A stretch of DNA of 64,000 bases, from assembly GCA_963809485.1 (NCBI GenBank), contig CAWEJX010000008.1, positions 320,001 through 384,000 on the forward strand, read 5' to 3'. Below the pieces are notes generated by a model. That model was not told the origin of the DNA and made no database searches. It saw only the letters and a list, made by a program, of their open reading frames with translations. The DNA is from an uncultured Acidobacteriota bacterium (GTDB lineage Bacteria; Acidobacteriota; UBA6911). The position numbers were made by a program, and so were the translations under genes. This document shows, piece after piece, positions 19,833-63,942 of this stretch; the first letter of the stretch is position 1; each line of letters opens with the position of its first letter.

Positions 19833-21098
19833 TCAAATGGCTTGCGAGGCCCTGGCTTTTGCTCTCCTCTCCAATACAATGGGAGCGCTCTCTTTATAGA
19901 ATAATGCTACAACCAAAGCCACCGCCATGGAGATGGCGCAACCCCAGATCGCCGCGTGCAATCCATATTTATCGGCAAGAATTCCCAACAATATGGCGCC
20001 GCCGGATGCGCCCAGCAGTTCGCCGGTCAACTGGTTCGCTCCAATAATTGTCGCGACAAATCTCGGATCGCCGGACTCGGCCGGAATTGTGGATTGCATA
20101 AGAGCGCAGACCCCAACGCCACCCCAACCCACAAATGCAACCAGCATCAGCAGAAAGAGATTGGAGGGAGCATACAGGATTCCGATGGAGGCAAACACCC
20201 CCAATGCGGCGGCAATGAGGACCATGGGCTTACGCCCGACCTTATCGGACAATCCGGGAACCACAATGCCCCAGAAGATTGCGCCCAGGCCAAAGGCACT
20301 CATTACGTAGCTCATATAGGAAGGATCCAGGCCCTTCACGTTTACCAGATATCCGGGCGTATAGGTCAGCATGCAGATATACCAGCAGAGCAGGAAAATG
20401 GTCCCGATAATGGAAAGTATGATATTTCTTTTGCCCAGCACTTCGGAAATCTTCGCCTTCTCCCTGGCTTTGCCTTCAGCCAGGGCGCGACGCTCGGCCT
20501 CTTCCCGCGTCTCGGGATTGATGAGAATCTTGGCAATCATGATGGAAATAATGATTCCGGGGACGATCGTCACCACAAACGTCCATCTCCAGCCGATGGA
20601 TTTGGCCAGCGCCACCTGGATAATGGGGCCCAGCATGCTGGATATGAGACCCACGGCCACTACCTGCATCAATCCCATATTCAAGCCTCTTCGGCTGGGC
20701 GTGGATTGAGGGATGATGAAGCTCTGCGACACGGGCATGACGGGACCTTCGGAGGCGCCCATGATCAAGCGGATAAAAACCAGCATGACAAATCCGGTGG
20801 CAAGGCCCGTCAGCAGGGAGCAAATCGAAAACACCAGAACGATTCCCGCCAACAAAGCCTTTCTGGAACCCTTGCTGTCCGCAAACCAGCTTCCGAACAA
20901 ACCGACGATGGCCCAGCTGAAAGCAAATGCGGAGGTCGCCATGCCGAGTTGTGCGTTGTTCATTTTAAGATCGGGCAACACATAAACGGACAGGTTTGCC
21001 AACGCGAACCGGTCGAACATGACGAATCCGAATGCCAGGCACAGAGTCAGGACCATCCTATTTTCATAAGTCCAGAATCCTTTCGTCTTGCCATCCAT
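19833..21098 (-). CDS. MFS transporter
   Basis: About 12 hydrophobic segments; FDRFAL, RLIMGASEG, LSDKVGRK. Confidence 0.88.
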   Translation of the reverse strand: MDGKTKGFWTYENRMVLTLCLAFGFVMFDRFALANLSVYVLPDLKMNNAQLGMATSAFAFSWAIVGLFGSWFADSKGSRKALLAGIVLVFSICSLLTGLATGFVMLVFIRLIMGASEGPVMPVSQSFIIPQSTPSRRGLNMGLMQVVAVGLISSMLGPIIQVALAKSIGWRWTFVVTIVPGIIISIMIAKILINPETREEAERRALAEGKAREKAKISEVLGKRNIILSIIGTIFLLCWYICMLTYTPGYLVNVKGLDPSYMSYVMSAFGLGAIFWGIVVPGLSDKVGRKPMVLIAAALGVFASIGILYAPSNLFLLMLVAFVGWGGVGVCALMQSTIPAESGDPRFVATIIGANQLTGELLGASGGAILLGILADKYGLHAAIWGCAISMAVALVVALFYKESAPIVLERRAKARASQAI

Positions 21099-21202
21099 TT
21101 AGCTTGTCTCCTTCCATTCCATGGGAAATAGCAATAGCCAACTATCAAGAACCACTAGGTGTATTTCGAATTTTCCGCGGCGGCATAGTATCACCCAATT
21201 GG

Positions 21203-21762
21203 GGGGACAGGCTACCTGATTCCGGAGTCGGGCACCTCCGGCAAAGCCGGAGGCTTGTAAGATTTGAACCGCTCAAAGCGGTTGGAGGAGTTACGCCGGT
21301 CTTGAACGCTGACTTACGCGGGCAAAAGCCGATGAGGCGCTTCCGATCCCCGCAGGGGCCAGCGCTCCGCGCTGGACAGTTTTCTGCGGCGGCACTGTGG
21401 CAAGCGCCGTGCGGCAAGGAGATGAAGGGTATGAGAAACCGGGCGTTTGCCACAGTGCCGCCGCAGAAAACTCCATCGGAAGCGCCCCATCGGTTTTTGC
21501 ACGCCGATCCTCGCCGAACAAATCAGCGTTTGTCAGCGCTTTTATCAGCGTTTCTCAGCGTTTCAAAATACGGAGCTGTCAAACTCTTTGAGTCCCCCGG
21601 CAGAGCCGTGGGTTTACCAATGTAATCATTAGGTTCGCCCGGGGCAAGCCAGACCGTTGTTTCGGACCCAGCCCTTTCCGCAGCAGCTTCCTGCAGGCTA
21701 TTTCTTTCAGGCGACAAACAAATTCCTTGTTCCCGAATTGTGGAATCCCGTAGCCTGTCCCT
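21203..21762. repeat. GGGACAGGC inverted-repeat pair enclosing element copy D
   Basis: GGGGACAGGCTACCTGATTCC (21203-21223) and GGAATCCCGTAGCCTGTCCCT (21742-21762), 18/21 complementary. Confidence 0.6.
21227..21621 (-). mobile_element. IS200-end element, copy D (395 bp)
   Basis: Same length as copy C and nearly identical to it. Confidence 0.8.
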
Positions 21763-21885
21763 GTATCCGTGAGATAAAATGGCCTCGATTGAAGGTTGGT
21801 GTTGCTGAACTCCAAGCCGATGCAGCTGGGCAATCATGGTTTTGTTGTCTTCATAAACATACATTTTTCATGAGGTGATCAGCCA

Positions 21886-23199
21886 ATGACATCCCGGACT
21901 GAATTAAAAAAATTCCAGGCGGAAAACCTGCTTCTCAAAAAGCAGATTGAGGAAAAGGCCGGCAAAACGGTCGACCAGCTCTATGCCGAAAGAGCCAAAC
22001 GGGTGAGGGACGTAATCGAGTTGAGGGTGCCGGACCGGGTACCTTTCTCGTTCTTCGTCGAACCCCACACCTACTGCGGAATCCCCAATTCGGCCGCCTA
22101 TTACGACCCACTCACCTTCAAGCGGGCGACGCGGAAAATAGCCGTGGATCTGGAACCTGACATGTGCGAGGGCGGACTGCCGCGCTCCGGAGATGCGATG
22201 ACGGAGATGGATGTCAAAACCATGGTCTGGCCTGGCGGCCCGAAACCGCCTGACTTTGAGTACCAGTTCATCGAAGGGGAGTACATGAAGGAAGACGAGT
22301 ACGATATGTTCCTGAATGACCCTTCGGGTTTTATGATCCGGCGCTATCTTCCCCGCATCTACGGAGCCCTGGAACCTTTGAGCAAACTGCCTCCGCTGGA
22401 CAGCATGTACATGGGATTTGACGCACTGACGCCGCTCTTTATCACCCCGGAGTTCATCCAAATGGCTAAACGCCTGGCCAAAGCCGGAAAGCACGCCATA
22501 AAGTTCCGCAAAAACATCGGGGATGCTTATGAGGAGATGGCCCAGCTGGGATTCCCTCCATTCGCCCGGTTTCTGCCCGGCGGGGTGGGCGGAGCGCCTT
22601 TCGACACTGTTTCGAGCTTCCTGCGAGGCATGAAAGGCTCCATGCTCGATATGTATCGGCGGCCCGAGAAACTGCTCGCCGCCTGTGATGCGATCCTGGA
22701 AAGGCGTATCGCGCATGCCATTCCGGCCGACCGCAACGACAAAGACTTTCCTCAGAGAGTCGGAATGCCGCTCTGGAGAGGCGACCCGACGTTCATGTCC
22801 GAGGCTCAATTCAAGAGGTTTTACTGGCCCGGACTGAAAAAATCTCTGCAAACCCACGTGGATCTGGGTTATGTGCCCGTGCCGTTCTTTGAAGCTCCTT
22901 TTGGCGACCGGCTGGAGTGCCTGTCGGAGCTCCCCAAGGGGAAAGTATTGCCCGCGATAGAATCGGCGGATGCGGTCCGGGCGAAGGAGATGCTGGGAAA
23001 CCACAGCGCCCTGTTAGTGCATTGCCCGAACATGTTCAAGCTATGGTCGCTCCGGGACGTTGAATCGTTCGTCAAAGATCTCATTGACAAATGCGGCAAA
23101 AATGGCGGCCTCATTATTGCTATCCGGATACCGGACAAAGCCGAGACCCAAGACATCCAGGCCATGCTGAAATCACTGCGGGAATACAGCCGATATTGA
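21886..23199 (+). CDS. Uroporphyrinogen decarboxylase (URO-D/MtaA-CmuA superfamily)-like protein
   Basis: PDRVP, EYMKEDEYD...DPS, APFD...LRGMKG..LDMYRRPEKL, FMSEAQFKRFYWP, AKEMLG, CGKNGG. Confidence 0.8.
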   Translation: MTSRTELKKFQAENLLLKKQIEEKAGKTVDQLYAERAKRVRDVIELRVPDRVPFSFFVEPHTYCGIPNSAAYYDPLTFKRATRKIAVDLEPDMCEGGLPRSGDAMTEMDVKTMVWPGGPKPPDFEYQFIEGEYMKEDEYDMFLNDPSGFMIRRYLPRIYGALEPLSKLPPLDSMYMGFDALTPLFITPEFIQMAKRLAKAGKHAIKFRKNIGDAYEEMAQLGFPPFARFLPGGVGGAPFDTVSSFLRGMKGSMLDMYRRPEKLLAACDAILERRIAHAIPADRNDKDFPQRVGMPLWRGDPTFMSEAQFKRFYWPGLKKSLQTHVDLGYVPVPFFEAPFGDRLECLSELPKGKVLPAIESADAVRAKEMLGNHSALLVHCPNMFKLWSLRDVESFVKDLIDKCGKNGGLIIAIRIPDKAETQDIQAMLKSLREYSRY

Positions 23200-23228
23200 T
23201 GCAAACTGTATGAGAGGACATGAATCAG

Positions 23229-23322
23229 GGGGACAGGCTGCATGATTCCGTAGTTGCCAGTTGCCAACGGGAGACTCCCATTGAACGGTCTATGGAACTG
23301 CTGAGTCCATAAGCCTGTCCCT
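23229..23322. repeat. GGGACAGGC inverted-repeat doublet (about 95 bp)
   Basis: GGGGACAGGCTGCATGATTCC ... GAGTCCATAAGCCTGTCCCT. Confidence 0.55.
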
Positions 23323-23480
23323 GTGTTGCCATCTGCGTAGGTCGGCGTTACCAAAATGCCATACAAATCATATTAATGCGATAGATCCCAAAATAGGGTA
23401 AGCTGATTTTAAGAGACGCATTTAATGCGCTCAATTTCGGGCTAGAGAGCAATAGAAGTTTCTGTAAGGAGAACTATCCA

Positions 23481-25334
23481 ATGGCAGTCCCTTATGAAAT
23501 AGGCGGATATGTAGGCAAAATACTGCGCGTCGATCTTACGAGCGAGCGCATAAGTGAAGAAATCCTCGACATCGAAATTCTGCGAAAGTACGTCGGCGGC
23601 ACGGCGTTGGGCGCCAAATATCTATATGAAGAGGTTCCTCCGGGCGTCGAGTGGTCGGATCCTGAGAACCGGATGATGTTCTTCACCGGGCCCTTGACCG
23701 GAACGAAGGTCGGATCGGGGATCTTCTCCGTTATCAGCAAGGGGGCGACAACGGGATTGGCCGGGAGTTCCCAGGCAAACGGATTCTTCGGGGCCTTTCT
23801 GAAATTCGCCGGTTACGACGGCATCATCGTCCAGGGCCGGGCAAAGCAATGGTCCTATCTTTACATCCACGACAACACGGCCGAGATCCGAAACGCGGAA
23901 GACCTCGTGGGCAAGGACACATGGGAGACCGAGGATGCCATCAAGAAGGGATTGAAGCGGCAGAGCAGCGTTTATTCCATAGGCCCTGCCGGTGAAAACC
24001 TGGTCCGTTTCGCATGCATCGTCGGCGACCATGGTCATGTTGTTGCCCACAGCGGCCTGGGCGCGGTCATGGGATCGAAGCGGTTGAAGGCGGTTGTAGC
24101 CGAACGGATGCAGCGGAGCATCCCGGTTGTCGACCCGGGACGACTGAACGAGGTTGCGAAGTCCATGTACGAAGCGGCACAGAAGGCCATGCCCACTCTC
24201 TCTTCAGGAGGTACGGCTTCCGGATATCCCATCCTCTACCGGATCGGTCAGGTGCCCGTAAGGAACTACACGACGAATATCTTCCCGGAACACGAAAAAT
24301 TCGGCCCGGACTATCTTCGTACCCGCTTCAATAACACACCGACCAGCTGCTGGGCGTGCCGCTTTGCTCATTGCCGGCAAACCGAGGTCACCGAAGGCCC
24401 CTACAAAGGCTATCGGGGTGAAGAGCCCGAGTACGAGGTGTTGGCCGGGATGAGTGCGGCGATTGGCATAACCGACCCCGGCGCGACGGTTATGCTTGGG
24501 AACGAAATCGACCGGATGGGGCTGGAGGGGAACGAATCGAGCTACACGATTGCCTGGATGATGGAATGTTATGAGAACGGGTTCTTGAGCAAGGGAGACT
24601 TTGACGGACTCGAGATGACGTGGGGAAATGCCGAATCGACGCTTGCCATGCTGAAGAAGATCGCCTATCGGGAGGGCTGTGGCAATATTTATGCGGAAGG
24701 CCTGAAGAGAGTGGCGGAGAGGTTTGGCGGCGAGGCACAGAATTGCGCCGTCTATACCCTGAAGGCTGCAACTCCCCGCGGGCACGACCACCGGGCTCGC
24801 TGGACGGAGCTGGTCGACACCTGCACATCGAATACCGGCACGATCGAGATTGGCCCCGGAGTTCCCTTCATCAAGGAGCTGGGACAGACGCCGCCCAAGG
24901 ATCCCTTTGATGCGATGGATGTCTCGACCATGAACGCCGTCGTAAACGGGCGGCGTGTTTTTGAGGATTCCCTGGCTGTCTGCATCCTCACCAGCCACGA
25001 TTTTCAGATGGAGGTTGAAGCCCTCAACGCCGTAACCGGCCTGGATTATGGCTTGCAGGAGGCGTTTGACGTTGGACGGCGCGCCGTTAATCAGCTTCGG
25101 GTTTTCAACTTCCGCCACGGGCTGACAAAAGAAATGGAGGCTCCCTCTGTCCGTTATGCCTCGGTGCCGGTGGATGGCCCGCAGGCGGGCAAGGCCATCA
25201 TGCCCCACTGGGAAGCGCTGCGGAGCAACTACTACCAAAAAATGGGATGGGATCCCGAAACGGGCAAGCCGCTGCCTGAGACTCTGGAAAAGCTCGGGCT
25301 TGGACACCTCATTCCCGACCTTGGTAATTCCTGA
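23481..25334 (+). CDS. aor: Aldehyde:ferredoxin oxidoreductase family protein (W/Mo-bispterin)
   Basis: GYVGKILRVDL, GPLTGT, LKFAGYDGI, IGPAGEN, GLGAVMGSKRLKA, CWACRFAHC, EPEYE, YYQKMGWD..G.P. Confidence 0.9.
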   Translation: MAVPYEIGGYVGKILRVDLTSERISEEILDIEILRKYVGGTALGAKYLYEEVPPGVEWSDPENRMMFFTGPLTGTKVGSGIFSVISKGATTGLAGSSQANGFFGAFLKFAGYDGIIVQGRAKQWSYLYIHDNTAEIRNAEDLVGKDTWETEDAIKKGLKRQSSVYSIGPAGENLVRFACIVGDHGHVVAHSGLGAVMGSKRLKAVVAERMQRSIPVVDPGRLNEVAKSMYEAAQKAMPTLSSGGTASGYPILYRIGQVPVRNYTTNIFPEHEKFGPDYLRTRFNNTPTSCWACRFAHCRQTEVTEGPYKGYRGEEPEYEVLAGMSAAIGITDPGATVMLGNEIDRMGLEGNESSYTIAWMMECYENGFLSKGDFDGLEMTWGNAESTLAMLKKIAYREGCGNIYAEGLKRVAERFGGEAQNCAVYTLKAATPRGHDHRARWTELVDTCTSNTGTIEIGPGVPFIKELGQTPPKDPFDAMDVSTMNAVVNGRRVFEDSLAVCILTSHDFQMEVEALNAVTGLDYGLQEAFDVGRRAVNQLRVFNFRHGLTKEMEAPSVRYASVPVDGPQAGKAIMPHWEALRSNYYQKMGWDPETGKPLPETLEKLGLGHLIPDLGNS

Positions 25335-26567: not shown

Positions 26568-27191
26568 ATGAGCAGCAAGAAAAGCACAACCCGAAGGGCG
26601 TTCGTCCAGGATGTGTCAGCAGGCACCGCGGGGATGGCCTTCGTCGGCGCTTTAGCCCAACTGAATGCTTCCGCCTCGGCTCAGGAAGCCGGGAAGGAGG
26701 CCAGCAAAATGGTAAGCCTGGAACAACTAAAAAACGTCCTGCATGGATCAAACATCGTGGAACTAAAGCCGTGGAGATCCATCCACAAGAGCATCACAAT
26801 GCCGATGATAACGGCTCTGGGTGAGAAAGACATCCCGGGCTCCAAACTGGCGATTGGTTTTGCGTACGTCGAAAAGCCGGACTTGTTGGGAGTGGAAACC
26901 CACAAGCACAATAAGCGCGACCAGTGGATATTCCTTTTCGGCGCCAGGAACTTTGTGGATTTCGATGCCGATGTTGAATTCGTGATAAATAATCAGGTCA
27001 ACAAAATCAACTACCCCTTCTACGCCTATATCCCGGCAGGCATGTACCATATGCCGCTAAACGTAACCCGTGTCGGCAAACCCCTTATCTTCATTGACGC
27101 CAGGATAGCCGGCGACGATGATCCCCCGGTGTTCCTTGACAAGAACATTCCCAATAAAGGCCCCATGATACCTGCCAAGAAGAAATCCTGA
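26568..27191 (+). CDS. Cupin-like protein with twin-arginine signal peptide
   Basis: TRRAFVQ...ASA leader; HKH motif 1 and YIPAGMYHMP motif 2; paralogue of 55799-56275. Confidence 0.75.
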   Translation: MSSKKSTTRRAFVQDVSAGTAGMAFVGALAQLNASASAQEAGKEASKMVSLEQLKNVLHGSNIVELKPWRSIHKSITMPMITALGEKDIPGSKLAIGFAYVEKPDLLGVETHKHNKRDQWIFLFGARNFVDFDADVEFVINNQVNKINYPFYAYIPAGMYHMPLNVTRVGKPLIFIDARIAGDDDPPVFLDKNIPNKGPMIPAKKKS

Positions 27192-37557: not shown

Positions 37558-38271
37558 TCAGTTCAGGAACTTCGCGTAACCCGATATCATGATGGGATCA
37601 AAGCCCTGACCCATAACACAGCCGACCGTCATCATGTGGTCATAGTCCTGAAGCATAATAACGCGGTTTGTGAAGAATGGGGCGCAAACGCCCTGATGGA
37701 CGCGGCCCTTAATATCGACGAGGTAAATGGGACCTTTGATACTGGTTGCCTGGCAGGGCTGTTCAAAGGGCTCATTTTCTCTAGGCGACCAGGCCACGCG
37801 GCACTTGCCCGCCTCAAAGAAGTCCTGTGCCGTAAAACGGCCGCAGCCCAAAATCCAGGCCACATTGGTCCCGACCATAGCGTCGCCGGCGGAGCCATGG
37901 AGGGCCTGCGAACCGTCGGTCTTTGACTTTTGATCCGGGTCCCCGATGGCGCCATGGACATAATCATCGCCAAGAACCAGCGTTACGAGGGACTGCTCAA
38001 GTTCCATGACCGCAACATTGAGGCCGAAACGGACAAAATAGGTATTCAGCTCCAGTTTCAGGCACTCGTAGGCATATTCCTTGCCCTCGAATACGGCATT
38101 CTTTTTACACTTGAACGCCAGCTTATATTCCTTGTCCCCTGCGATAAGGGTGAAATCCTTGCCCGCGAGTTCGTAGTTATGCGCGAATCTGTACTGGCCG
38201 ATGCCATGCTTCTCGCCGGAGTTGGCAAGATTCTTTATATATACGCCGCCATCGTCATAAACGTAATTCAT
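37558..38271 (-). CDS. Hypothetical protein, distant MoaF-like paralogue
   Basis: Shares ELAGKDF, YECLK, MVGTNVAW, IKGPIY and LQDYDHM blocks with the adjacent gene (ELEGRSF, YECLK, MVGTRVEW, IKENMY, LQNYDRM). Confidence 0.65.
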   Translation of the reverse strand: MNYVYDDGGVYIKNLANSGEKHGIGQYRFAHNYELAGKDFTLIAGDKEYKLAFKCKKNAVFEGKEYAYECLKLELNTYFVRFGLNVAVMELEQSLVTLVLGDDYVHGAIGDPDQKSKTDGSQALHGSAGDAMVGTNVAWILGCGRFTAQDFFEAGKCRVAWSPRENEPFEQPCQATSIKGPIYLVDIKGRVHQGVCAPFFTNRVIMLQDYDHMMTVGCVMGQGFDPIMISGYAKFLN

Positions 38272-38308: not shown

Positions 38309-39181
38309 TCAGACTGTGTATGGATTCTCGGCGTTCAGGAACTCGTCATTGAGCTTCACAGGGTTGCCAAATGCGCCGAACAGTGTGCGGCAAGGCCCTA
38401 GGACGCCGTCCCTCTGGATGGTGCCGAAAGTACGGCCGACATGATACATGCGGTCGTAGTTCTGCAGGAAATTCATGTTGTTTGAGCGGAACAGGCACTT
38501 GTCGCCGACGATGCGCTCCATCATCTCCTCTGTGAGACTGAAGAGGTACATATTCTCTTTGATCTTGATGTACTGGGCGACCTCGTCCGAGGCGGGCATC
38601 AACTCAAAGGGATCGCCGATTTTTTCAACGGCAGTGCTGATCCTGGGCCAGGTGATACGGTAATAAGAGGTGCAATAATAGTCATGCTGGGTAAACATTG
38701 AGGTGTTCCAGTGCCACTCAACCCTGGTGCCGACCATCTGGGTGGTGAAGCAGTGGCGTTTCATGGGCAACTCCATCCCCTCGACCTCGATGGCGCCGAA
38801 GTCGTACTCGCTTTTGACGAGATAGGGGAGCTTTGGATTGCCTCCCATGGAGCAAACTGCCCTCGTGACGAGGCGCTGCTCCAGATCAATAATGAAAAAA
38901 TGGTTCACCTTGTTTGGCTTGTCAAGGAACTCCACAAGATCGTAGTCCACGAGGTATGTCGTGTCGTCGCCCTTGAGGCACTCGTATCTGGCTGCTTTCG
39001 GCTTATCGCCGGCAATATTCCATTCGCAGGCATCTTTGCCGGTGAATTTCAGTTCGAAATCATAACCGTTGTCCATAATGAAGCGAAAACTCCTACCTTC
39101 CAGCTCAGAGCAGTGGGGCTGCGTGAACTGATCGATGGCATAATCCCTGCGTGGATAGTTTTTGAGATTCAATTTGCTCAC
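38309..39181 (-). CDS. MoaF-family-like protein
   Basis: ELEGRSFRFIMDNG, TYLVD, IIDLEQRLVT, HCFTTQMVGTRVEW, YIKIKENMY; GTG start with GGGAGG RBS. Confidence 0.65.
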   Translation of the reverse strand: MSKLNLKNYPRRDYAIDQFTQPHCSELEGRSFRFIMDNGYDFELKFTGKDACEWNIAGDKPKAARYECLKGDDTTYLVDYDLVEFLDKPNKVNHFFIIDLEQRLVTRAVCSMGGNPKLPYLVKSEYDFGAIEVEGMELPMKRHCFTTQMVGTRVEWHWNTSMFTQHDYYCTSYYRITWPRISTAVEKIGDPFELMPASDEVAQYIKIKENMYLFSLTEEMMERIVGDKCLFRSNNMNFLQNYDRMYHVGRTFGTIQRDGVLGPCRTLFGAFGNPVKLNDEFLNAENPYTV

Positions 39182-39414: not shown

Positions 39415-39700
39415 AATATGCTTCCTATGGAATGCACGATATGAGCGCTGGAAATCCCATTAAGCCGTTGATTTCGACACTGATTGCAATTTTATCCCAT
39501 ATTGGGACAATATATCCTGGAATTTTTACAGGTCTGAACTTATCAGCCGGATTTTGGACTCAACGGAGGAAAGTCATAATTCCATGCATGCTGAACTGGG
39601 AAATTAGTTAGCCTGATCCTGGATTTGGACACTATGGGGCTGTTTAAGACATAATTCTCTAATGGGGACTTCAAAACTAATTATCATGGAGGAATCGCGC

Positions 39701-41419
39701 ATGAAATTGCGTATCGCGGTCCTTGCAGTTTTGTGCATAGGCCTTGTTTGCAGTGTTTCAATGCAGAGCAATCAGACCTATGCGCAAGGGAAGAAATCAG
39801 CCTCGGCCAATGGACCGGTGGTCATGCCGAAAATAACGGTGCTCAATCCGATGGGAACGCCGCCGCCGATCACGTTGATCCCTCAGGCGCCGCGCCCGAA
39901 CACGCTGGACGGCAAGACTCTCTACTTTATTAATACCGGCTATATAGGGACCGATCGTCTTATGGCAGTAATGTCCGATTGGTTTAAGGCCAACTATCCC
40001 AAAACCAACATCGTATATAAAGACTATAAAAGCGGGGCCGGATTGGCCGAGCTGAGCAAAGAATTGTGGGCTGAGGTTGCTGAAAAAGGAGACGCCGCAA
40101 TCGTCGGGCTGGGCCATTGAAGTCTCTGTGCGCCAGCGGCGGTTCGCCTCTCTTTTGATATCGAATCCAAAATGAAAAAGCCCGCAGTGCCCCTCATCCT
40201 GACCGATTTTGAAAAACAGGAAAAAGAGGTGGCTTATAACCTCGGAATGCCCAATCTGCGGATCCAATTTTTCCGCGGCCCGGTCTGGGGTAAAACGAAC
40301 GAGCAACTCAAGAAGCAGATTGTGGAAGGAAACAATCCGATTACGGGGAAACCGGTGATGCCGGAGCTGGTGGAAAAACTGACCAAACCCCTGACGGCTG
40401 AAGAACAAAAAACCGGAGAAGTGAAGCAGAATCTGGGACCGAAGACTTATACAGGAACGCCCGACGAACTCCAGAAGTTATTTCTCGAAAAAAGATACAC
40501 GGACTTCCTGCCCGTGGTATTGCCCACCGAAGATAAAGTCGCCGAAATGCTGAAGTTCACCAGCCACGAACCCACCAAGGTGCTCGGCAAAATGAATCCC
40601 GGGTCCGAGGCCGGCGAAAGCTGGACCTATACGGTAAAGGATGCAGCCGTGAGCGCAGTCATGGCGGGCGCCAAACCGGAATATTTCCCGGTCATTCTGG
40701 CATTGGGCTCAACCGGCATGACGGCCGTCAACGTTTCCGATAACGGCTTCATGGCGGGTGCCGTAATCAATGGCAAGATCCGCGACGAAATCGGGCTTAA
40801 TTACGAAGAGGGCGCCGTAGGCCCCTATGCCCACGCCAATACGACCATTGGCAGAGCCTGGAGCCTGCTGTCCATCAATGGCGGAAACTGCGGCAAAGTC
40901 GGAACAACCTATATGGGCACGATCGGAAATCCAATGAACCTGATCGGGATCATCATGGCCGAAAATGAAGGGAAATCTCCCTTCAAGCCGCTGTCTGTGA
41001 GGCGCGGATTTAAAGAAGGTGAAAACATCGTCACTCTATTCATGGGATGGGGCATTCTTTCCGCCAAGAACTGGGCCGCAACTATTTGGGGGCCCAACAT
41101 GAACTATCCCGAGATTATCAAGGAGATCTACAGTACGCAGGACGGACACTTGTTTGGAACTTGCGCCGTTCTGAGTCCGCCGATCGCCAATTTCGTCAAG
41201 GACGCCGGATACGATACCGTGGAAAAGTTTACGGAATGGGTAACGGGCCAGCCGATTGGAGCCAAGCCCGCCGCTCCCCGCGGAGCGGAGATCAACATGG
41301 GCGTTCGCAAAGCCGGAGGGATGTTCACCGTCATCGTCACCGGCGGATCCAACAACAACTACTTCAGCATGGGCGGCATGGTGCCGGCCCAGTCAGTCCA
41401 GATTGATAAGTGGCGGTAG
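39701..41419 (+). CDS. Exported UGSC-family selenoprotein (572 aa, Sec140, motif USLC)
   Basis: ORFs 39662-40120 and 40172-41419 are in frame across TGA 40118-40120, giving AAIVGLGH-U-SLCAPAAVRLSFDIESKMKKPAV; signal peptide; TDFLPVVLPT, AVMAGAKPEYFPV, ANTTIGRA, AENE; GGAGG RBS. Confidence 0.88.
40121..40151 (+). promoter_or_regulatory. SECIS-like hairpin
   Basis: AG-c-GGCG[GTT]CGCC-t-CT; G-starting loop at +22 from the UGA. Confidence 0.6.
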
Positions 41420-43822: not shown

Positions 43823-44178
43823 ATGAAAAGGGCTCGGATCCTGCAAAATGATTCTATTGCCGGGAACAAGCATCCGTAAGGGGCCATGCGGCCATGGTCG
43901 GGATATCCGGTTGAGACAGCTGCACATCGGCCGTGAGCCGAAATTGCAGAACGCTGGAACAGAACTTTCAGATTCCCACTGTCGGAGGCGCGGCATCCAA
44001 TATCATCCAATATGCCCAGGGACACGATTTCCAGTACACCAACGGCTCGCCCATTCGATATATATCCTTTCCCTTCCCAGTGGCCGGGCAACCTCAATCA
44101 GTCCACCATCTCAAAGGCATCTATCTGAGCCTCGTCTGCCACATAAATCGGCCTGCCTCGGTGATAATTTCGTTTTGA
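43823..44178 (+). pseudogene. Decayed UGSC-family selenoprotein remnant (motif UDSC)
   Basis: In-frame GHAAMVGISG-TGA(43912-43914)-DSCTSAVSRNCRTLEQNFQIPTV...PIRYISFPFP, parallel to GDAAIVGLGH-U-SLC...IESKMKKPAV...NLRIQFF of 39701; the frame is closed upstream and truncated downstream. Confidence 0.7.
43915..43949 (+). promoter_or_regulatory. SECIS-like hairpin
   Basis: CTGCA-ca-TCGGC[CGTGA]GCCGA-aat-TGCAG: two stems, loop at +18 with G in second position. Confidence 0.6.
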
Positions 44179-55798: not shown

Positions 55799-56275
55799 AT
55801 GGCTGATATGCCTATCATAAAGAACATAAAGCGCGAACAAACTGTATATGAATTGAAACCCTGGAAATCAATTCACGACACCATTAAAAAACCGATGGTC
55901 ACCGGTCTGGGCCCGGCGGAAATCCCGGAATCCGCTCTGGGGATGGGATTCGCTCACATCACGGAACCCGACATACTGGGTAGCCCTACGCATATTCATC
56001 CGTTCGACCAATGGATTTACCTTATCGGAGCTGAGGTTTTTTCCGATTTTGATGCGGATATTGAGTTTACCTTCGGCGAAGAGGTTCTGAAGATCAACTA
56101 TCCATGCTATATCTTTGTCCCAAAAGGTACCAAGCATTGCCCGTTGGATATTAAGCGCGTCGGGAAGCCACTGATCTTCATCGATGCCAGTATTACCCAG
56201 GAGGCGTCCGTTCGTCCGGAAAAAATCGCGAGTGTCGAGCGCCCGATTTATCAGGCGTTAAAAAATAAAAAGTAA
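55799..56275 (+). CDS. Cupin-like protein, no signal peptide
   Basis: THIHPFDQ, FVPKGTKHCPL; close paralogue of 26568-27191 (ELKPW.SIH, DFDAD.EF, KINYP, RVGKPLIFIDA). Confidence 0.78.
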   Translation: MADMPIIKNIKREQTVYELKPWKSIHDTIKKPMVTGLGPAEIPESALGMGFAHITEPDILGSPTHIHPFDQWIYLIGAEVFSDFDADIEFTFGEEVLKINYPCYIFVPKGTKHCPLDIKRVGKPLIFIDASITQEASVRPEKIASVERPIYQALKNKK

Positions 56276-56599: not shown

Positions 56600-56908
56600 T
56601 AATTAGTTTCTGTCGCGAAACTCGGGTTTTGTGAAAAAGCCAAATTTTTCAACCGTCAATAGGATATTTGATATTACATGGAAGCCGATAATTGGGGTCA
56701 GGCCGCGTAGCGGCCAGCTGAATTTAGCCAGGCCTTTTAAGGCCTGGATCGAAAGGCGTTAAGTTTTCCGTCGCGTAGCGACGGCTGAATCTCAGGCGTC
56801 GCTACGCGACGCGCTGCTCGCTGTACCATGGTTCCCGGCCTTGAAAGGCCGGGCTAAAATCATAGTGCCGCTACGCGGCACAAACCAGTTTCCCGACAGA
56901 AATAATTA
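56600..56908. mobile_element. TIR-bounded MITE with palindromic REP-like core, copy 2
   Basis: TAATTAGTTTCTGTCGCGAAACT ... AGTTTCCCGACAGAAATAATTA; near-identical to 36936-37235. Confidence 0.78.
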
Positions 56909-57700
56909 GCGGTTCATGGGAGATAATTGAGCTGCCGCTTTGGCGCATCTCTTACCATAGAGCTGCATTTTTTCTTTTGTCATCCTGAATGCGGGCCCCA
57001 CTATTGACAAAGCCCCCATTACCCGCTCTTCCGAATCAAACAATGGTGCCGAAACCGCACTGATTCCTTCCTGGAACTCTTCAGTATCGGCAGCATAGCC
57101 TTGTTCGCGGACAATCGCCAGTTCGTTTCGATAAAGCTTCACGCCTGTAATGGAGTTCTTGGTTCTAGCAGGAAGCCCCTCCCTTCTGATGATTGTGTTG
57201 ACCCGGCTTTCAGGAAGCCAGGCGAGCACGGCCTTACCATTGGATTTGTTTAGGACTGAATCCATTGTTCCAATAGGCGGAGACACACGGAGCTCGACCG
57301 GGGATTCCACCGATTCCACTATGACCATTTTGGTTCCACTCAAAACGGCCAGGTTGGCAGTTTCCCCGCTATATTCAGCCAGATCTTTTAAAAATGCTTT
57401 TGTTGAACGATTGATATGTAAATTGTTCAATGCAGCCTGGCCACACTGCACCAGCGCAAGCCCAAGAGTGTACGCCTTGGTCGTTTCATTGCGGTTTAGG
57501 AATCCGAGGTGACTCAATGTCACAAGGATTTTGTGCACACTGCTTTTATGATATCCGGTAATAGAGGCTATTTCGGCGAGGGTCATTTCTCGTGTTCTGC
57601 TTCCAATCATCAGCATGATACGAGCTGCTCTGTCTACCGCTGGGACATTGTATGCGGAAATATCATCTTCCACGGAAGGATCTTTTGAGTTCCGTTTCAT
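56906..57700 (-). CDS. IclR family transcriptional regulator
   Basis: VPAVDRAARI, HTH LAEIA...HKSSVHKIL, SGETANLAV, GKAVLA, REQGYA.D.EE..EG..AVSAP. Confidence 0.9.
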   Translation of the reverse strand: MKRNSKDPSVEDDISAYNVPAVDRAARIMLMIGSRTREMTLAEIASITGYHKSSVHKILVTLSHLGFLNRNETTKAYTLGLALVQCGQAALNNLHINRSTKAFLKDLAEYSGETANLAVLSGTKMVIVESVESPVELRVSPPIGTMDSVLNKSNGKAVLAWLPESRVNTIIRREGLPARTKNSITGVKLYRNELAIVREQGYAADTEEFQEGISAVSAPLFDSEERVMGALSIVGPAFRMTKEKMQLYGKRCAKAAAQLSPMNR

Positions 57701-57738
57701 GACTTTTTCCTTTGAATCAAGGGTGAAGCTTGGCATGA

Positions 57739-58021
57739 TCAGGAATCACCAGCAGGCACGACATTGATCTCAATTCCATATTCACCAGCGCATCGGCAAT
57801 GCCCTGGGTGCTCGTCTGCGCGGGAATTAACAGCGAATAGCTGTTGGGGAAACACTGTCAGGGTGTTGTCCTCTTTCTTGAAGCCCCGTGAAACATGCAA
57901 GGGTTCCCAGGGACTATCTTCCCCATGCATATGCGTCCGTATCTAATGGAGCTTTAAAGGAAACGTGTACTACCATGATGGAGATCATCCTCATGGCAAA
58001 AATCAGCACAATCCTTCGTAT
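57739..58021 (-). pseudogene. Internally deleted UGSC-family gene remnant
   Basis: EDSPWEPLHVSRGFKKEDNTLTVF aligns with EGKSPFKPLSVRRGFKEGENIVTLF and EEMSPWDPYQVSQGFAKGDSTVTV; preceded by GGAGGGAGG and a signal-peptide-like stretch. Confidence 0.65.
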
Positions 58022-58110: not shown

Positions 58111-58524
58111 CTACTTTTCTATCGGGTACCCCGCATCCTTCCAGCCCTTAATGGCTGGATCCGCCAATACCTTTACATTTTCAAGGCCCATTTGAAGCAA
58201 CTGAGACGCAACATCCGCGCTGTCCGATTCTCCCGGTCCGCAGTCGCAATAAACGATAATGGGATTGTTTTTCGGCAGACTGAACACCGCATCGACCGGG
58301 ATCTGCGCCTTCCACGGAAGAGAGACAGCTCCTTTAATGTGGCCCTCTTGATAAACATCCTTCGGCTGAACATCCACGATGGTAACCGGCTTGCCATCAT
58401 CCATCATCTTCTTCAGTTCCTGAATGCTTATTCGGGGCACATCCTGCGCCGCCGCATAGGCCGCGCCAAAAAGGAAACAAACAATCAAAACGCCGGACAA
58501 AACACACAAGTTCTTGTTCTTCAT
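58111..58524 (-). CDS. Exported rhodanese-like domain protein
   Basis: Signal peptide; VPRISIQELK, IVDV, EGHIKGA, VYCDC, GW..AGYP; RBS AAGGAG. Confidence 0.85.
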   Translation of the reverse strand: MKNKNLCVLSGVLIVCFLFGAAYAAAQDVPRISIQELKKMMDDGKPVTIVDVQPKDVYQEGHIKGAVSLPWKAQIPVDAVFSLPKNNPIIVYCDCGPGESDSADVASQLLQMGLENVKVLADPAIKGWKDAGYPIEK

Positions 58525-58580
58525 ATTCTCCTTTGCCCGGCAGCCCATGTGTGGACCGCCGTCTGCAGTGCATCCTGATT

Positions 58581-59040: not shown

Positions 59041-60366
59041 ATGGCAGCGTTCAAATCCAGGGAAGAACTCATCGCCGCTGAAAAGGGTCTTAAAGAAGCC
59101 ATCGAAAGGAAACACGGCAAAACCGCCGAGGAGCTTTGCCTGGAGCGGGAAAAAAGGATTGACGCTGCGATGCGGCTGAAAGAGCCGGACCGTGTGCCGG
59201 TGGTTTTCTGGGATGTTCCTTTGCTCGCCTGCCGCTATGCCGGGCTGCCCTATTCTGCCGCCTATTACGACGCCCCCGCCTGGAAGGCAGCCTTCAAAAC
59301 GATGCTAGCCGACCTTGAACCCGACGGCTGGGCGGTAGCCGGCCGCGAATCGGGCGCGGCGCTGGAAGCCACCGGCACCAATTTCACCCGCTGGCCAGGC
59401 GGCAATCTGCCCCCCGACGTCGGCAACCAGGTAGCCGAACAGGAATTCATGAAAGAGGACGAATACGACCATTTCCTGGCCGACCCTTCCGACTTTATCG
59501 TGCGGGTCTGGCTGCCGCGGGCCTACAGCTCGCTTCAGCCGCTGGCCAAACTGCCGCCGCTGATGGACATGGGGACGGGCGTGGCTGCGATGGGCAGGAT
59601 GTTCGCCGCGGGACAATTCGAGCAGCTTATCGGGGCGATGAAGGCTGCCGGCGCAGCGGCGGCGAAATGGGAAAGCGAGATGGGGCGCATGGATGTGGAG
59701 ATGGCCTCCCTGGGTCTTCCGGCAGCGCCGCTGTCCTTCGGCGGCGTAACCCCGCCTTTTTCGAGCTTCAGCAACAATTTCCGCACCTTCCGGGGGGTGG
59801 CGCTCGATATGTTCCGCCGCCCGGAGAAGCTCAAGGCTGCCCTGAACAAGCTACTGGAATACCGGATCGCCACTGCTGCACCCCCTGTGAAAAAGGAGGG
59901 AAAACTGGCCGTGGGCAGCGCCAGCGAACCCCACCGGGTTTCCGACGAATTTCTTTCGCTGAAACAATTCGAGGAATTCGTCTGGCCTTTCTGGAAACGG
60001 TCCATCGAGGCCACGCTTAAACTCGGGTATGATGTCAACTGGATGTTTTTCGAGGGGCGCCGCGATAAACAGCTCGAGTATTTCGCCGATTTCCCGAAAG
60101 GCAGTCTGATGATTTTGTTCGAGAGAACGGATATTTTCCGGGCCAAGGAAATCCTCGGAGACCGCGTCTGCCTGATGGGCAATGTTCCTCTTTCCCTCCT
60201 CCAGCTCGGTTCGCCTCAGGAAGTCGAGGATTACGGCAAGAACCTAATCAAGGTTTGCGGCAAGGGCGGCGGGTTTATCCTGGCCAACGGCGGCGGTATC
60301 TATGACGCCAAACCGGAGAATATGCGCGCTATGGTTGAAACCGTCCGGAAACACGGATGGTACTAA
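59041..60366 (+). CDS. URO-D/MtaA-CmuA superfamily-like protein, paralogue of 21886-23199
   Basis: PDRVP, EFMKEDEYD..LADPS, LDMFRRPEKL, FLSLKQFEEFVWP, FFEG, AKEILG..CLMGNVP, CGKGGGFIL. Confidence 0.82.
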   Translation: MAAFKSREELIAAEKGLKEAIERKHGKTAEELCLEREKRIDAAMRLKEPDRVPVVFWDVPLLACRYAGLPYSAAYYDAPAWKAAFKTMLADLEPDGWAVAGRESGAALEATGTNFTRWPGGNLPPDVGNQVAEQEFMKEDEYDHFLADPSDFIVRVWLPRAYSSLQPLAKLPPLMDMGTGVAAMGRMFAAGQFEQLIGAMKAAGAAAAKWESEMGRMDVEMASLGLPAAPLSFGGVTPPFSSFSNNFRTFRGVALDMFRRPEKLKAALNKLLEYRIATAAPPVKKEGKLAVGSASEPHRVSDEFLSLKQFEEFVWPFWKRSIEATLKLGYDVNWMFFEGRRDKQLEYFADFPKGSLMILFERTDIFRAKEILGDRVCLMGNVPLSLLQLGSPQEVEDYGKNLIKVCGKGGGFILANGGGIYDAKPENMRAMVETVRKHGWY

Positions 60367-60438: not shown

Positions 60439-61770
60439 CTAGAAGTTTTTGTCGTAAGCCAGGTCCCTTTTCAGTGTTCTGGCAGCCAGCAGAAAATGTA
60501 TGGCCGCCCATAGGGTTGCGACAATGACAACCATCAGAATCGCATATCTCAGCGAATCATTGCCATACCGCGGCTGCATGGAATCACTTAATGCGCCGAC
60601 GACCAGCGGCCCCACGCCCATGGAAATCAGGTTTACAAAAAAGGCATAGATCGCGGACGCCACGGCACGCCGGGCCGATCCCGCAATACCGAGCAGCATG
60701 GACATCGTCGGGCCAAGATACATGTGTCCGAGAAGAGTCGGGAGGATCAGGAAAAGCAGGGCCGGTATGGGAGCGGGCCAGAGATATACCAGGAAAACGA
60801 CAGGGACAGCGACCAGGATTCCGGCGCTGGAAATCCACATATACCAGCGTGGATCCTGAGTTTTCCGGAACATGCGATCGCCCATTGCACCTCCGAGGAA
60901 TGCGCCGCAGGCTCCGGAGATCCCGAAGACGAAGGCAAGCCAGGTTCCCGTTTCGCCGCTTGTCATTCCGTGCGAGCGCATGAAAAATGAAGGCTGCCAT
61001 ATTCCCGCTCCCCAGCCGGAAAGGCCATAGAGAGCCGCGGCGAAAATTAGATGAAGGGAGGCAGGCCTCTCCCACAAGTAGCGCAATGTAGTCAACACAG
61101 GGGGTGCCGGAGCTTGCGGCTGCAAAGTATCGTGGAATCCGCGCGGCGGTTCACGCACAGTGAGCCTGAGAAGTATCGCGACCGCGATACCCGGCAATCC
61201 AACGACCATGAAAGCCGCGCGCCAGCCGAAAAACTGATTGACCCAGCCGCCAACCAGGAATCCCGTTAGTACCCCCAGCGGCACCCCCATACCCTGCACG
61301 GCCAACGCCGTGCCTCGCCTTTCCGCAGGGTAATAATCCGCTAAAATCGAATTCGACGCCGGCGAGCTTCCGGCTTCACCGATCCCGACACCGACGCGTG
61401 CCAGAAAAAGCGATATGAATCCGGTAGCCAGGCCGCACACAGCCGTCATACCGCTCCACAGGCAGAGAGTCACGGCAATTATATTTCTTCTATTAACTCT
61501 ATCCGCAAGAGAAGCGATAGGAATTCCCACAATAGAATAGAATACCGCAAAGGCCAATCCTCCCAGCATTCCGAGCTGAGTGTCCGTAAAGCCGAACTCC
61601 AGTTTGATCGCCTCCAGCAATACGGCCATTATCTGTCGGTCCACGAAGTTGAGAACTGAAATAATCAGCAGCAGTACTACAACATACCTGCGCTCCATTT
61701 CTGTGATTCTGAAGGCGGGCAGGTTCCCTGCTCTGAGAGTTTCCCTTGCGGCTGCAGCATCCACAATCAT
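60439..61770 (-). CDS. MFS transporter (spinster-like)
   Basis: NFVDRQI, GIPIASLADRVNR, ARVGVGIGEAG, DYYPAERRG, GWRAAF; AGGAGG RBS. Confidence 0.9.
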   Translation of the reverse strand: MIVDAAAARETLRAGNLPAFRITEMERRYVVVLLLIISVLNFVDRQIMAVLLEAIKLEFGFTDTQLGMLGGLAFAVFYSIVGIPIASLADRVNRRNIIAVTLCLWSGMTAVCGLATGFISLFLARVGVGIGEAGSSPASNSILADYYPAERRGTALAVQGMGVPLGVLTGFLVGGWVNQFFGWRAAFMVVGLPGIAVAILLRLTVREPPRGFHDTLQPQAPAPPVLTTLRYLWERPASLHLIFAAALYGLSGWGAGIWQPSFFMRSHGMTSGETGTWLAFVFGISGACGAFLGGAMGDRMFRKTQDPRWYMWISSAGILVAVPVVFLVYLWPAPIPALLFLILPTLLGHMYLGPTMSMLLGIAGSARRAVASAIYAFFVNLISMGVGPLVVGALSDSMQPRYGNDSLRYAILMVVIVATLWAAIHFLLAARTLKRDLAYDKNF

Positions 61771-62049
61771 TCTGCCCTCCTGCGAATACGTTTCCGACCA
61801 ACATGAGATCTATACGTGGCCCGTCAACTGGAAGACAAATACATTTTTCATTGCCTGAGCGATCTTCACGAGGCAGTTCGGAGTTCGCCACACTGTGGGA
61901 CGCCGCCTTCTTTATGTCAAGTCTGAATGTGAGATTATCCGTGTAGGGCAAATGGCTCCCAATCATCTCAGCGGGTGGCGTCCTAAATGAATCTATGTTT
62001 GAAAATGCCTTAACGAATGGCGCGAAGCTTCTCGGCTCGCGTCCTGTTA

Positions 62050-62283
62050 ATCAGGTACCTACGGCAAAGCCGGAGGCTTAAAAGGTTTGAACCGCTCAAA
62101 GCGGTTGGAGGAGTTACGCCGGTCTTGAACGCTGACATACGCTGAACGAACGCCGACCCACGCCGACAAAAATTTATATATTTTTTCAGCGTACGTCAGC
62201 GTCATGTCAGCGTACGTCAGCGTTTCAAAATAGGAGCTGTCAATCTCTTTGAGTCCCCCGGCAGAGCCGGGGGTTTACCAAAT
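62050..62283 (-). mobile_element. IS200-end element, copy F (about 234 bp, different core)
   Basis: Both terminal hairpins; core of CGCTGA/TCAGCG repeats around AAAAATTTATATATTTTTT. Confidence 0.75.
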
Positions 62284-62286
62284 AAA

Positions 62287-63942
62287 TTATCGCCCGGCCT
62301 TGGTCATGGTCGCGCCCGTGATCTTTTTTGTGACATGGGCAACCGTCTCGTAGCTCCACAACAGGGAATAGCCCGGCACACCGCCGGCCACGGTAATGGA
62401 AAAATTCTTTTCCGGTATGCCGGTCTTTTGAGCAAACCAAGCCTGTACATCCTTGCTGGTTTTATAACCCATTTTTGCTAAACCTTGAGCACATTCCGGG
62501 TGAAACCATACCAGATAGCCCCCTCTGCCTTTGCCGATCGATTTAATCATACCGTCCAAAATCCCCTGCTCCGTCCAGATAGCGACCGCTCCACCTCCAA
62601 ACATATTGGCCCCAGATCCACCATAAGAGCCGACCTTGGTCACCGTCACTGTACTGTCTCCCTTGGCAAAACCCTGGCTTACCTGATAGGGGTCCCAGGG
62701 GCTCATCTCTTCATTTTCGGCAAAGGTGTAAAAGGTATGCGGCGACGTCCGCCCGGTCAGGGCCATGTCGTTCTCCGCCGGCCACGTGTGACCAATATTG
62801 CGCGTCGCTAATCGAACGGACCGTCCAATGGTATTATTGGCGCGCCAGCAATCGCCCAGGTAACCAATCCCCGAATTCATGTTGATTTCCTTAGCTATTG
62901 GACCGTTCACCTGAATGGCAAGAGTAAAGGCACCCGCCGATCCCATCATGTGCCAGAATCCCATCCCGGTGTACCCTGGCGCCACAAATGCCTCCATCGC
63001 CGCGATTACCACTGGAAAGTACTCCGGCTTTGCTCCCGCCATCACCGCGTTGATCGCAATCTTTTCAATAGTGGCCGTGCCGGATTTCATGGGGATTTTG
63101 CCTATCACTTCGCTCGGGGAACGACTCGTCCCTTTGAGCATCCGGGCAACGGCTTCCCTGGTCGGGGGCACCAGAGGCAATCCATCGCCCATCTTGTTTT
63201 CGAGAAACGACGCGTTGAACTTTTCCACCGCGTCCTCATAACTATCGCCCGTAATGCGAACGGGCGGGTATTCGACTGCGGATCTTGTCTGAGGCTTCGC
63301 CTCCTCTGCTGTCAGAGGCTTCGTCAGTGCATCCACAATGGGATTAAAAGCGGCTTCAACGAGGGGTCTTAACTCTTGTACCGTTCCCCGAAGCCTGTAC
63401 CATTTTTCGGAAGGAAATGTTACCATCCGCATGTTGGGCATCAACCAATCAGCAGCGGCTGATTTTGCGTCCTTCAGGAAATTCGAGCTGACCAGAAGTA
63501 CTCCAGGCGCTCCATACTTTTCCATCTGCATTGTGCGGCGGGAACCCCACCACGTGCAGGTCCCTCAGTCTCCCATCGCATATACAAATGCATCGCATCC
63601 CTTCGCGATCGACTGAAAATGCTCTTCCTGTGCCTGTGCCTGTATTCCCGGGTTAAATCCTCGCTGAATAGTTACGCCCGGATACTTCTGCTTCAGCATT
63701 TCTTCCAGTATGTCAAATAGCTGCGGCACACCCGGTTTGATGTTATGCACCAGAGCAATCTTCTTACCAGAGTAATCCGAAAGACGAGGCCTCAGTGCTA
63801 AAAATGGCTCAGGCTCAATCACGCCCATGGGATTGAGCAGCTCCAAAGTAACCTTTTCGTTCGCCGGCCCGGCCTTCGACCACCCGCCAAAAAATAAACC
63901 GGCGGTCAGCAGCAAAAAAGCCGCTAAGATTTTATTTCTCAT
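62287..63942 (-). CDS. Exported UGSC-family selenoprotein (551 aa, Sec126, motif UGTC)
   Basis: ORFs 63565-63942 and 62287-63531 are in frame across TGA 63567-63565, giving YAMGD-U-GTCTWWGSRRTMQMEKYGAPGV; signal peptide; GDGLPLVPPT, ATIEKIAINAVMAGAKPEY, ANNTIGR, FAENE. Confidence 0.9.
63535..63564 (-). promoter_or_regulatory. SECIS-like hairpin
   Basis: GTGGTGGG[GTT]CCCGCCGC, an 8-pair stem with two G-U pairs, starting 12 nt after the UGA; loop at +20. Confidence 0.7.

Follow-up and report, generated by a model that had tools for sequence, protein, structure and literature searches.

The question raised by this locus is whether genes that recur side by side encode one pathway or belong to families multiplied throughout the genome. 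The window analyzed here is the whole 64,000-nucleotide stretch at positions 320,001 to 384,000 (forward strand) of contig CAWEJX010000008.1 in the assembly GCA_963809485.1, derived from an uncultured bacterium of the Acidobacteriota lineage UBA6911. The source genome (G000) comprised 6.04 Mb, with 95.7% completeness and 7.3% contamination. An earlier note on this DNA had proposed an undescribed anaerobic system with families reused in two neighbourhoods, in which exported UxxC selenoproteins of the UGSC family carry out periplasmic selenium/sulfur chemistry, transporters of the major facilitator superfamily (MFS) provide uptake, and URO-D-like, cupin, and aldehyde:ferredoxin oxidoreductase (AOR) proteins process the substrate under the control of an IclR regulator. 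Every gene on its list was found where it had been placed, including a UGSC remnant that was a frameshifted piece of the C-terminal domain. Our best explanation for the whole, at a probability of roughly 0.6, is instead an accessory catabolic island in which cassettes of multiplied small-molecule enzyme families are re-assorted, and not one pathway. Several enzyme families have indeed co-expanded, and the expansion is real and restricted to one genus.

The two UGSC fusions in the window were selenoprotein A (39662..41419, plus strand; likely start at 39701), with TGA at 40118-40120 in the motif GH-U-SLC, and selenoprotein B (62287..63942, minus strand), with TGA at 63567-63565 in GD-U-GTC followed by a hairpin resembling a selenocysteine insertion sequence (SECIS). 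Each was a single open frame through one TGA and encoded a signal peptide, PF24696 at the N-terminus, and a C-terminal domain, about 330 residues long, that had no Pfam match. The PF24696 homology ran across the TGA in both, lying on both sides of it in selenoprotein A; the scores of 28.8 and 44.1 bits were above the cut-off of 25 (E 3e-11 for selenoprotein B), while those for NF041046, 35.7 and 71.8 bits, were below its cut-off of 125 (E 7.8e-9 for selenoprotein A when the TGA was read through, and 5.8e-20 for selenoprotein B). Because the genome encodes SelA, SelB, and tRNA-Sec, and the TGA falls on the UxxC motif of the family, reading both window codons as selenocysteine is credible. Across the family, the 45 nucleotides after the TGA folded with a mean of -14.1 kcal/mol versus -9.9 in coding controls, and a synonymous-shuffle test gave negative z values for 38 of 45 rows (p 1e-7), one row being a spurious second TGA. 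Taken singly, the hairpin gave z -0.85 in selenoprotein B and was weak in selenoprotein A (z +0.40). In the source genome, a hydrophobicity heuristic assigned a signal peptide or twin-arginine translocation (Tat) peptide to 34 of 39 selenocysteine-form fusions versus none of 19 URO-D-like proteins. The earlier description of these proteins as exported UxxC selenoproteins is thus supported by predicted signal peptides and the TGA position, and we regard the UGSC fusions as mostly exported, single-chain selenoenzymes with putative catalysis.

All-against-all clustering of the 4841 called genes of the source genome revealed 60 open reading frames with the UGSC C-domain, 60 cupin-like, 45 xanthine-dehydrogenase-type, 22 AOR, and 19 URO-D-like genes. 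There were about 55 UGSC fusions, and 44 selenocysteine codons once partial genes were included. Among the 51 full-length fusions, 39 carried TGA at the motif (36 UxxC and 3 UxxA), none carried cysteine, and 12 had a non-thiol residue (S, A, T, G, L, or M) at that site. Their median identity was 29%, with two pairs above 90%. A tandem run of three fusions with U-x-x-A replacing U-x-x-C was located at G000:C4:341623-348040. Window selenoprotein B lies downstream of a three-gene xanthine-dehydrogenase-type unit just beyond the window edge; its twin (95.6% identical over 62284-63961) at G000:C12:156525-158204, likewise downstream of a xanthine-dehydrogenase-type gene, is either a recent duplication or a second strain. 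With 44 codons, this single family outnumbers the whole Syntrophobacter selenoproteome (39 genes, given in passages of PMC9312934) and comes near the records of 57 and 63 genes in passages of PMC13188914. De novo prediction of the complete selenoproteome was discarded, as its 434 candidates were mostly spurious. The UGSC genes are split at the TGA by annotation, so that the expansion is hidden in databases.

UGSC fusions were present in all 29 genomes of the same genus (9 to at least 36 matches) versus 7 of 31 other relatives (one or two copies); across the phylum, 25 of 251 genomes matched, with one to three copies outside the genus when the best 8 candidates per genome were scored. URO-D-like genes occurred in 29/29 genus genomes (2-17 copies) versus 3/31 relatives, the cupin family in 29/29 (2-41 copies) versus 1/31, and the MoaF-like family in 24/29 versus 0/31. 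SelB was found in 29 of the 31 non-genus relatives, and therefore the ability to insert selenocysteine fails to explain this contrast. Contamination as the source of the copies was ruled out by the two paralog pairs above 90% identity and by a closed, single-contig genus genome with 36 UGSC matches, mostly with one TGA. The intergenic repeat described below was rejected as a driver, as it was not enriched at UGSC genes (12/60 versus a background of 21.5%). Within the genus, after removal of genome size, UGSC copy number covaried with that of URO-D-like genes (partial rho 0.59) and cupins (0.60), in genomes that are kin and of uneven completeness. An exported family of about 300 amino acids with no Pfam match (G000:C12:208101-208985, L085, and 25 paralogs) showed 5-34 copies in 29/29 genus genomes and none in the 31 relatives.

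Co-location in the source genome was examined by circular-shift tests, the p-values being uncorrected for about 100 comparisons. URO-D-like genes near UGSC numbered 3, 5, and 6 of 19 within 2, 5, and 10 genes (p 0.08, 0.04, and 0.07). UGSC genes were not enriched near cupin (p 0.31-0.61), MFS (0.50-0.71), IclR (0.42-1), or rhodanese genes (0.37-1), and near AOR p reached 0.04 at a distance of two genes only. URO-D-like genes stood near MFS genes (4/30 within two genes, p 0.0015) and cupins (8/60 within five genes, p 0.009). Better neighbours of UGSC were DUF4352-like proteins (7/9), FAD_binding_2 flavoproteins (11/22), carboxylesterases, and xanthine-dehydrogenase-type genes. The DUF4352-like proteins (G000:C12:197253-197666, L081, and eight paralogs), small and many of them exported, were the tightest partner found, the seven having a UGSC fusion no more than two genes away. 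In the closed genus genome, one of 15 URO-D-like genes had a UGSC gene at a distance of 10 kb or less, where 1.3 were expected. Among 80 URO-D loci of the genus, of at most 20 kb each and taken from the matches listed among 322 with long contigs favoured, MFS occurred in 36, cupin in 11, AOR in 10, UGSC in 10, corrinoid genes in 2, and IclR and rhodanese in none. The 79 loci of other taxa, mostly Dehalococcoidia, had corrinoid genes in 23, MFS in 15, a pterin-binding methyltransferase in 11, AOR in 7, cupin in 6, UGSC in 5, and IclR in 2.

In the sister genome G006, whose proteins are 87-97% identical, the three blocks of the window (MFS 1 to Tat-cupin, 19833-27191; MoaF-like pair and selenoprotein A, 37558-41419; cupin 2 to selenoprotein B, 55799-63942) were contiguous through deletions, the island being about 40 kb shorter (L285, G006:C48:1-20000); this block may be an assembly artefact. 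URO-D-like 1 was reduced there to residues 315-422, URO-D-like 2 to residues 1-116, and the AOR protein to residues 273-614, and the IclR, rhodanese, and Tat-cupin genes were gone. Both selenoproteins, both MFS genes, the MoaF-like pair, and cupin 2 were intact. RNA data from three runs held 5-7% of the words, and short contigs came from relatives only.

These results did not bear out a fixed gene set co-located beyond family abundance, whether in the circular-shift tests, the 80 genus loci, the closed genome, or the sister genome. Most of the families reused in two neighbourhoods did not recur more often than chance allows, being some of the genome's largest paralog families, and control by IclR was not supported, as IclR was missing from the 80 genus loci and the sister block. 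The link to MFS transporters held for the URO-D-like genes, and the anaerobic, small-molecule catabolic context found support. The phylogenetic profile pointed both ways: the families share one profile and their copy numbers covary in the genus, but the unrelated exported family shares it too, and it is one lineage event from which a pathway cannot be defined. As the negative result shows, inferring pathways from gene neighbourhoods is misleading where families have expanded in this way. The searched passages of the UBA6911 description (10.1101/2021.04.09.439258) do not mention selenium or methyltransferases.

The URO-D-like proteins, both apparently cytoplasmic, were encoded at 21886..23199 (URO-D-like 1, plus strand) and 59041..60366 (URO-D-like 2, plus strand). 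Both matched CdmB of Acetobacterium dehalogenans (PDB 9rui) over the full length in phmmer searches, with E 2.1e-23 and 1.1e-31, respectively, by far the best PDB matches; a Trp of URO-D-like 1 aligned with the CdmB Trp. URO-D-like 1 had no match in a Pfam search, and URO-D-like 2 matched PF01208 (E 1.7e-22). As described in passages of PMC13222342, CdmB is a zinc-free methyltransferase I of the UroD superfamily, related to O-demethylases, that transfers the methyl group of chloromethane to a corrinoid protein. Sequence comparison shows that the two proteins are homologues of CdmB/O-demethylase-type methyltransferase I. The earlier note was right that an HxC zinc motif is missing, but its argument against methyltransferase function fails, because both proteins are full-length homologues of a zinc-free enzyme in whose relatives the motif is not needed, and because related proteins have corrinoid neighbours in 23 of 79 loci. 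A true uroporphyrinogen decarboxylase (HemE) was rejected, with 26.7 bits to TIGR01464 against a cut-off of 303 for URO-D-like 2 and no match for URO-D-like 1. Differences from the CdmB system are that the match is distant, that the window genes have no adjacent corrinoid protein, methyltransferase II, or activator, and that up to 19 paralogs face about five corrinoid proteins. As the earlier note had stated, no corrinoid gene lies within the window; the source genome had five corrinoid-cap (PF02607) matches, of which two neighbour URO-D-like paralogs.

In a quick tree of 89 proteins, from which seven short locus rows and two fragments were left out, both window proteins fell in a clade A of 36 rows (SH-aLRT 99), and one paralog grouped tightly with proteins of Acidobacteriota metagenome-assembled genomes. 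The closest relatives of URO-D-like 2 were from Dehalococcoidia (69-85% identity). Corrinoid neighbours were found for 0/36 clade A rows versus 25/53 other rows, and UGSC neighbours for 8/36 versus 1/53 (4/29 versus 0/43, p 0.023, with the source genome excluded; 7/34 versus 2/40, p 0.07, in other genus genomes), although the rows are related and the p-values overstated. This neighbourhood of clade A and UGSC is the one surviving part of the earlier idea, a weak and non-independent signal. The placement beside CdmB points to an unrecognised alkyl-transfer capacity in the genus lineage and in Dehalococcoidia. The new results are that the proposed system was tested and dismissed, the controls across the genus, the assignment to CdmB, and the clade without corrinoid links; the families themselves are catalogued or have characterised relatives.

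The AlphaFold model of selenoprotein B from a 135-row alignment had pLDDT 94 and pTM 0.94 (pLDDT 37 in single-sequence folding), so the two domains are predicted to pack as a unit. In searches with the whole model, residues 31-191 matched Rossmann/flavodoxin-like folds with Z 9-11 and without a standout, and the C-domain was poorly covered by any row, which does not by itself show a new fold. A PDB sequence search with the fusion gave no match, and an Atlas search returned unannotated clusters only. Profile comparison by hhalign placed selenocysteine on selenocysteine between the N-domain and 31 PrdB-like proteins (P 84%, E 7e-6, 70 columns), as well as with a genuine GrdB adjoining GrdE (P 88%, E 3e-6, 35% identity), while P was at most 11% for 114 control families. 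The N-domain is thus shown by sequence profiles to be homologous to the selenocysteine domain of GrdB/PrdB, with a predicted flavodoxin-like fold. The similarity to GrdB/PrdB (PF07355) extends over a segment of about 70 columns, in which the selenocysteine is followed by ExxGxP and the next strand, and selenocysteine is apparently preferred over cysteine in both; the differences are the unrelated fused C-domain, the export, and the failure of the GRDB model itself to detect the fusions. In proline reductase, according to passages of PMC11229817, the PrdB selenocysteine attacks the alpha-carbon of the substrate and the U151C variant is inactive, which fits the absence of cysteine forms among the source-genome fusions. 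The conserved polar C-domain residues D229, N345, R350, and E385 of the 135-row alignment are a candidate substrate site. A stand-alone PrdB-like selenoprotein is also encoded at G000:C20:1216512-1216865 (L100), in a genome without PrdA; its family matched in 50 of 201 phylum genomes.

As for the UGSC family as catalogued (PF24696, NF041046), the window fusions resemble it in that the N-domain matches both models, the TGA falls at UxxC, and a large unannotated domain is fused, a fusion to 'Unknown_1' being recorded in passages of PMC2398784. They differ in scoring below the NF041046 cut-off (36 and 72 versus 125 bits), in carrying signal peptides, in numbering about 55 paralogs per genome, in lacking a cysteine form in the source genome, and in a predicted fold that is flavodoxin-like, not thioredoxin-like. 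Among open-access papers on UGSC, the passages searched mentioned neither GrdB homology nor a genus expansion. UGSC is among the most abundant environmental selenoprotein families, with its function missing since 2008.

The earlier proposal of one dedicated, IclR-controlled pathway, running from periplasmic selenium/sulfur chemistry through MFS uptake to conversion by URO-D-like, cupin, and AOR proteins, appears very improbable. The common genus-level profile, the copy-number covariation, the proximity of URO-D-like genes to MFS and cupin genes, and the contiguity of the three blocks in the sister genome would all agree with it. That contiguity, however, arose by deletions that truncated both URO-D-like genes and the AOR gene; the profile reflects a single evolutionary event; UGSC genes were not enriched near four of the proposed partners; cupin, AOR, and UGSC were each found in 10 or 11 of the 80 genus loci and IclR and rhodanese in none; and the window genes run in mixed directions with repeats between them. 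A narrower coupling, in which corrinoid-unlinked clade A and the UGSC fusions cooperate, for instance if a selenolate took the place of cob(I)alamin in accepting the alkyl group or if both acted in turn on one substrate class, is unlikely as well, if somewhat less so. It draws on the opposite corrinoid and UGSC neighbour counts of clade A and on the Rossmann/flavodoxin-like N-domain, a fold type like that of the cobalamin-binding domain entering the CdmB barrel. Most clade A loci, however, had no nearby UGSC gene, the closed genome stayed at the expected number, and clade B in the genus was also detached from corrinoid genes (2/40). The UGSC fusions of the genus are mostly exported and the URO-D-like proteins are not, while three UGSC neighbours inspected in Dehalococcoidia/Chloroflexota had no signal peptides.

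Two other readings concern the UGSC fusions alone. One takes them for thioredoxin-like thiol-disulfide oxidoreductases or peroxidases that serve redox maintenance in the envelope, which would agree with the UxxC motif, the export, the CxxC forms in 22 of 60 database proteins, and the label of a likely thioredoxin-like fold in passages of both PMC2398784 and PMC13188914. We nevertheless consider it unlikely, since the N-domain of the confident model matched parallel-sheet Rossmann/flavodoxin-like folds and is homologous to GrdB/PrdB, and substrate-specific catalysis accounts better than housekeeping for dozens of 29%-identical copies that carry a large conserved fused domain; thioredoxin was not among the structure matches listed for the N-domain, an absence that does not exclude the thioredoxin family. 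Binding or metal-cluster proteins for sensing, scavenging, or trafficking, rather than catalysts, are suggested by the 12 full-length copies with neither selenocysteine nor cysteine and by the top structure match of the N-domain, a subunit of the methyl-coenzyme M reductase activation complex (8s7v_H, Z 11.0, root-mean-square deviation 4.8, 136 aligned). This match was barely above generic Rossmann rows (Z 9.4 when re-aligned) and the SECIS-supported selenocysteine is kept in 39 of 51 copies, which makes such a role quite improbable.

In the preferred reading of an accessory island of re-assorted cassettes, the UGSC selenolate would, by analogy with GrdB/PrdB, attack a carbon or heteroatom of a substrate held by the fused domain of about 330 residues, the substrate bond would be cleaved reductively, and the selenenyl-sulfide of UxxC would then be re-reduced by some donor. 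Copies that have diverged may differ in specificity, by analogy with the multi-reductase arsenals described for gut anaerobes. The URO-D-like proteins would most probably transfer alkyl groups of substrates imported by MFS transporters to one of the few corrinoid proteins that other parts of the genome encode, and the cupin, AOR, and MoaF-like genes would be independent members of the same expanded toolkit. Several points weigh against this explanation. Among 60 database homologues spanning the N-domain, 27 had cysteine at the selenocysteine position, a share inflated by the shortening of selenocysteine forms in databases. The covariation of UGSC and URO-D-like copy numbers beyond genome size would also follow from a shared function, and the anaerobic lifestyle is deduced from gene content only. 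The pyruvoyl proprotein GrdE/PrdA (PF09338) was found in 0/3 genus genomes and GrdA (PF04723) exceeded the cut-off in 0/3, with the control genome positive for each, and the C-domain had P 0.4% with GrdE; the analogy is therefore limited to one domain. Thus, as GrdE/PrdA and GrdA are lacking in all three genomes, the UGSC fusion is not a member of the glycine or proline reductase complexes and would at most act like a selenoprotein B of the GrdB/PrdB kind. Similarly, the lack of corrinoid neighbours for all 36 clade A rows makes the partnership in trans an assumption.

The nearest lifestyle analogy is provided by gut bacteria with 30-100 exported reductases, described in passages of 10.1101/2022.12.26.521950 for Eggerthella, Sutterella, and Holdemania, where lineage-restricted exported redox enzymes likewise reach tens of copies. 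The main expanded family here differs in being a selenoprotein family without a characterised member. The source genome also encodes 22 FAD_binding_2-type flavoproteins, 12 with Tat signals, which are enriched beside UGSC genes. A bolder and rather doubtful extension would count the dozens of periplasmic GrdB-type selenoenzymes, each a single chain, as respiratory-like reductases of a third class beside flavin and molybdopterin enzymes, cleaving or reducing diverse small organic compounds without a pyruvoyl subunit, and would have a corrinoid-unlinked CdmB-like clade cooperate with some of them, selenolate serving instead of cob(I)alamin to accept the alkyl group. The combination of a GrdB/PrdB-type nucleophile, export, and tens of diverged copies offers an assayable mechanism and organisms to enrich.

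The remaining members of the expanded families were annotated as follows. Pfam assigned no family to either window cupin alone, namely the Tat-signal cupin (26568..27191, plus strand; RRAFV motif, TIGR01409 E 0.012) and the cytoplasmic cupin 2 (55799..56275, plus strand), whose H65, H67, and H113 were invariant in 22 paralogs and whose profile matched PDB 6j4b with E 9.8e-5. The cupin call holds at the family level, on an invariant HxH...H, Cupin_2 in 8 of 22 members, and a profile match to PDB cupins (E 1e-4). PDB 6j4b and 7eqk, which we take to be MarH/StnK3-type epimerases, share the HxH...E...H metal-binding pattern; the window family differs in the match of only 1e-4, Tat or Sec-type signals in many members, and 60 paralogs. 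The AOR family protein (23481..25334, plus strand) was of the tungsten type, with PF01314 and PF02730, a match to 1aor (E 2e-82), and 22 paralogs. The MoaF-like pair consisted of protein 2 (37558..38271, minus strand; PF10703 E 0.001, under the cut-off) and protein 1 (38309..39181, minus strand; PF10703 E 1.6e-9).

MFS transporters 1 (19833..21098) and 2 (60439..61770), both on the minus strand, matched PF07690 with E 1.9e-47 and 1.5e-48. The IclR-family regulator (56906..57736, minus strand; PF01614 and PF09339) was not a conserved neighbour, and the last 155 nucleotides of its gene (56904-57058) recurred with 99% identity at G000:C1:174124-174278, shortly downstream of selA. The frameshifted C-domain remnant (about 57726..57921, minus strand) matched a paralog at C12:123461 by blastx in two frames (E 4.6e-17). 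An additional remnant absent from the earlier list, of the UGSC N-domain (43846..44109, plus strand), had a TGA at 43912 in SG-U-DSC, a hairpin z of -1.83, and 92% nucleotide identity to a paralog at C4:391829. The rhodanese (58111..58524, minus strand) was an exported single-domain protein with a signal peptide in the cysteine form (YCDC), with PF00581 and NF041203 (E 8.7e-18, under the cut-off).

Rfam and ARAGORN scans of the window gave no matches, and a promoter/terminator scan stayed at chance level. Palindromic intergenic repeats of 200-400 bp occurred at 7452-7674, 9953-10156, 15352-15938, 21218-21636, 36933-37350, 56466-56912, and 62043-62303, the family having about 447 genome sites and some copies being 96-98% identical. 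The copy at 21218..21636, between MFS 1 and URO-D-like 1, belongs to an abundant type of about 400 bp with about 100 near-full-length genome copies. A transposase-like gene (28537-29607, plus strand; seven genome copies, weak IS200/Y1 match, E 0.068) could mobilise these repeats. Frameshifts have broken a class I methyltransferase gene (25590-26274, minus strand) and a Tat aldo-keto reductase/4Fe-4S gene (42457-43601, minus strand) into several open reading frames each. In the region 30177-35524 (plus strand), which the sister block lacks, a gene for an exported linalool dehydratase/isomerase-like protein precedes NosL-like, ABC permease, and membrane protein genes.

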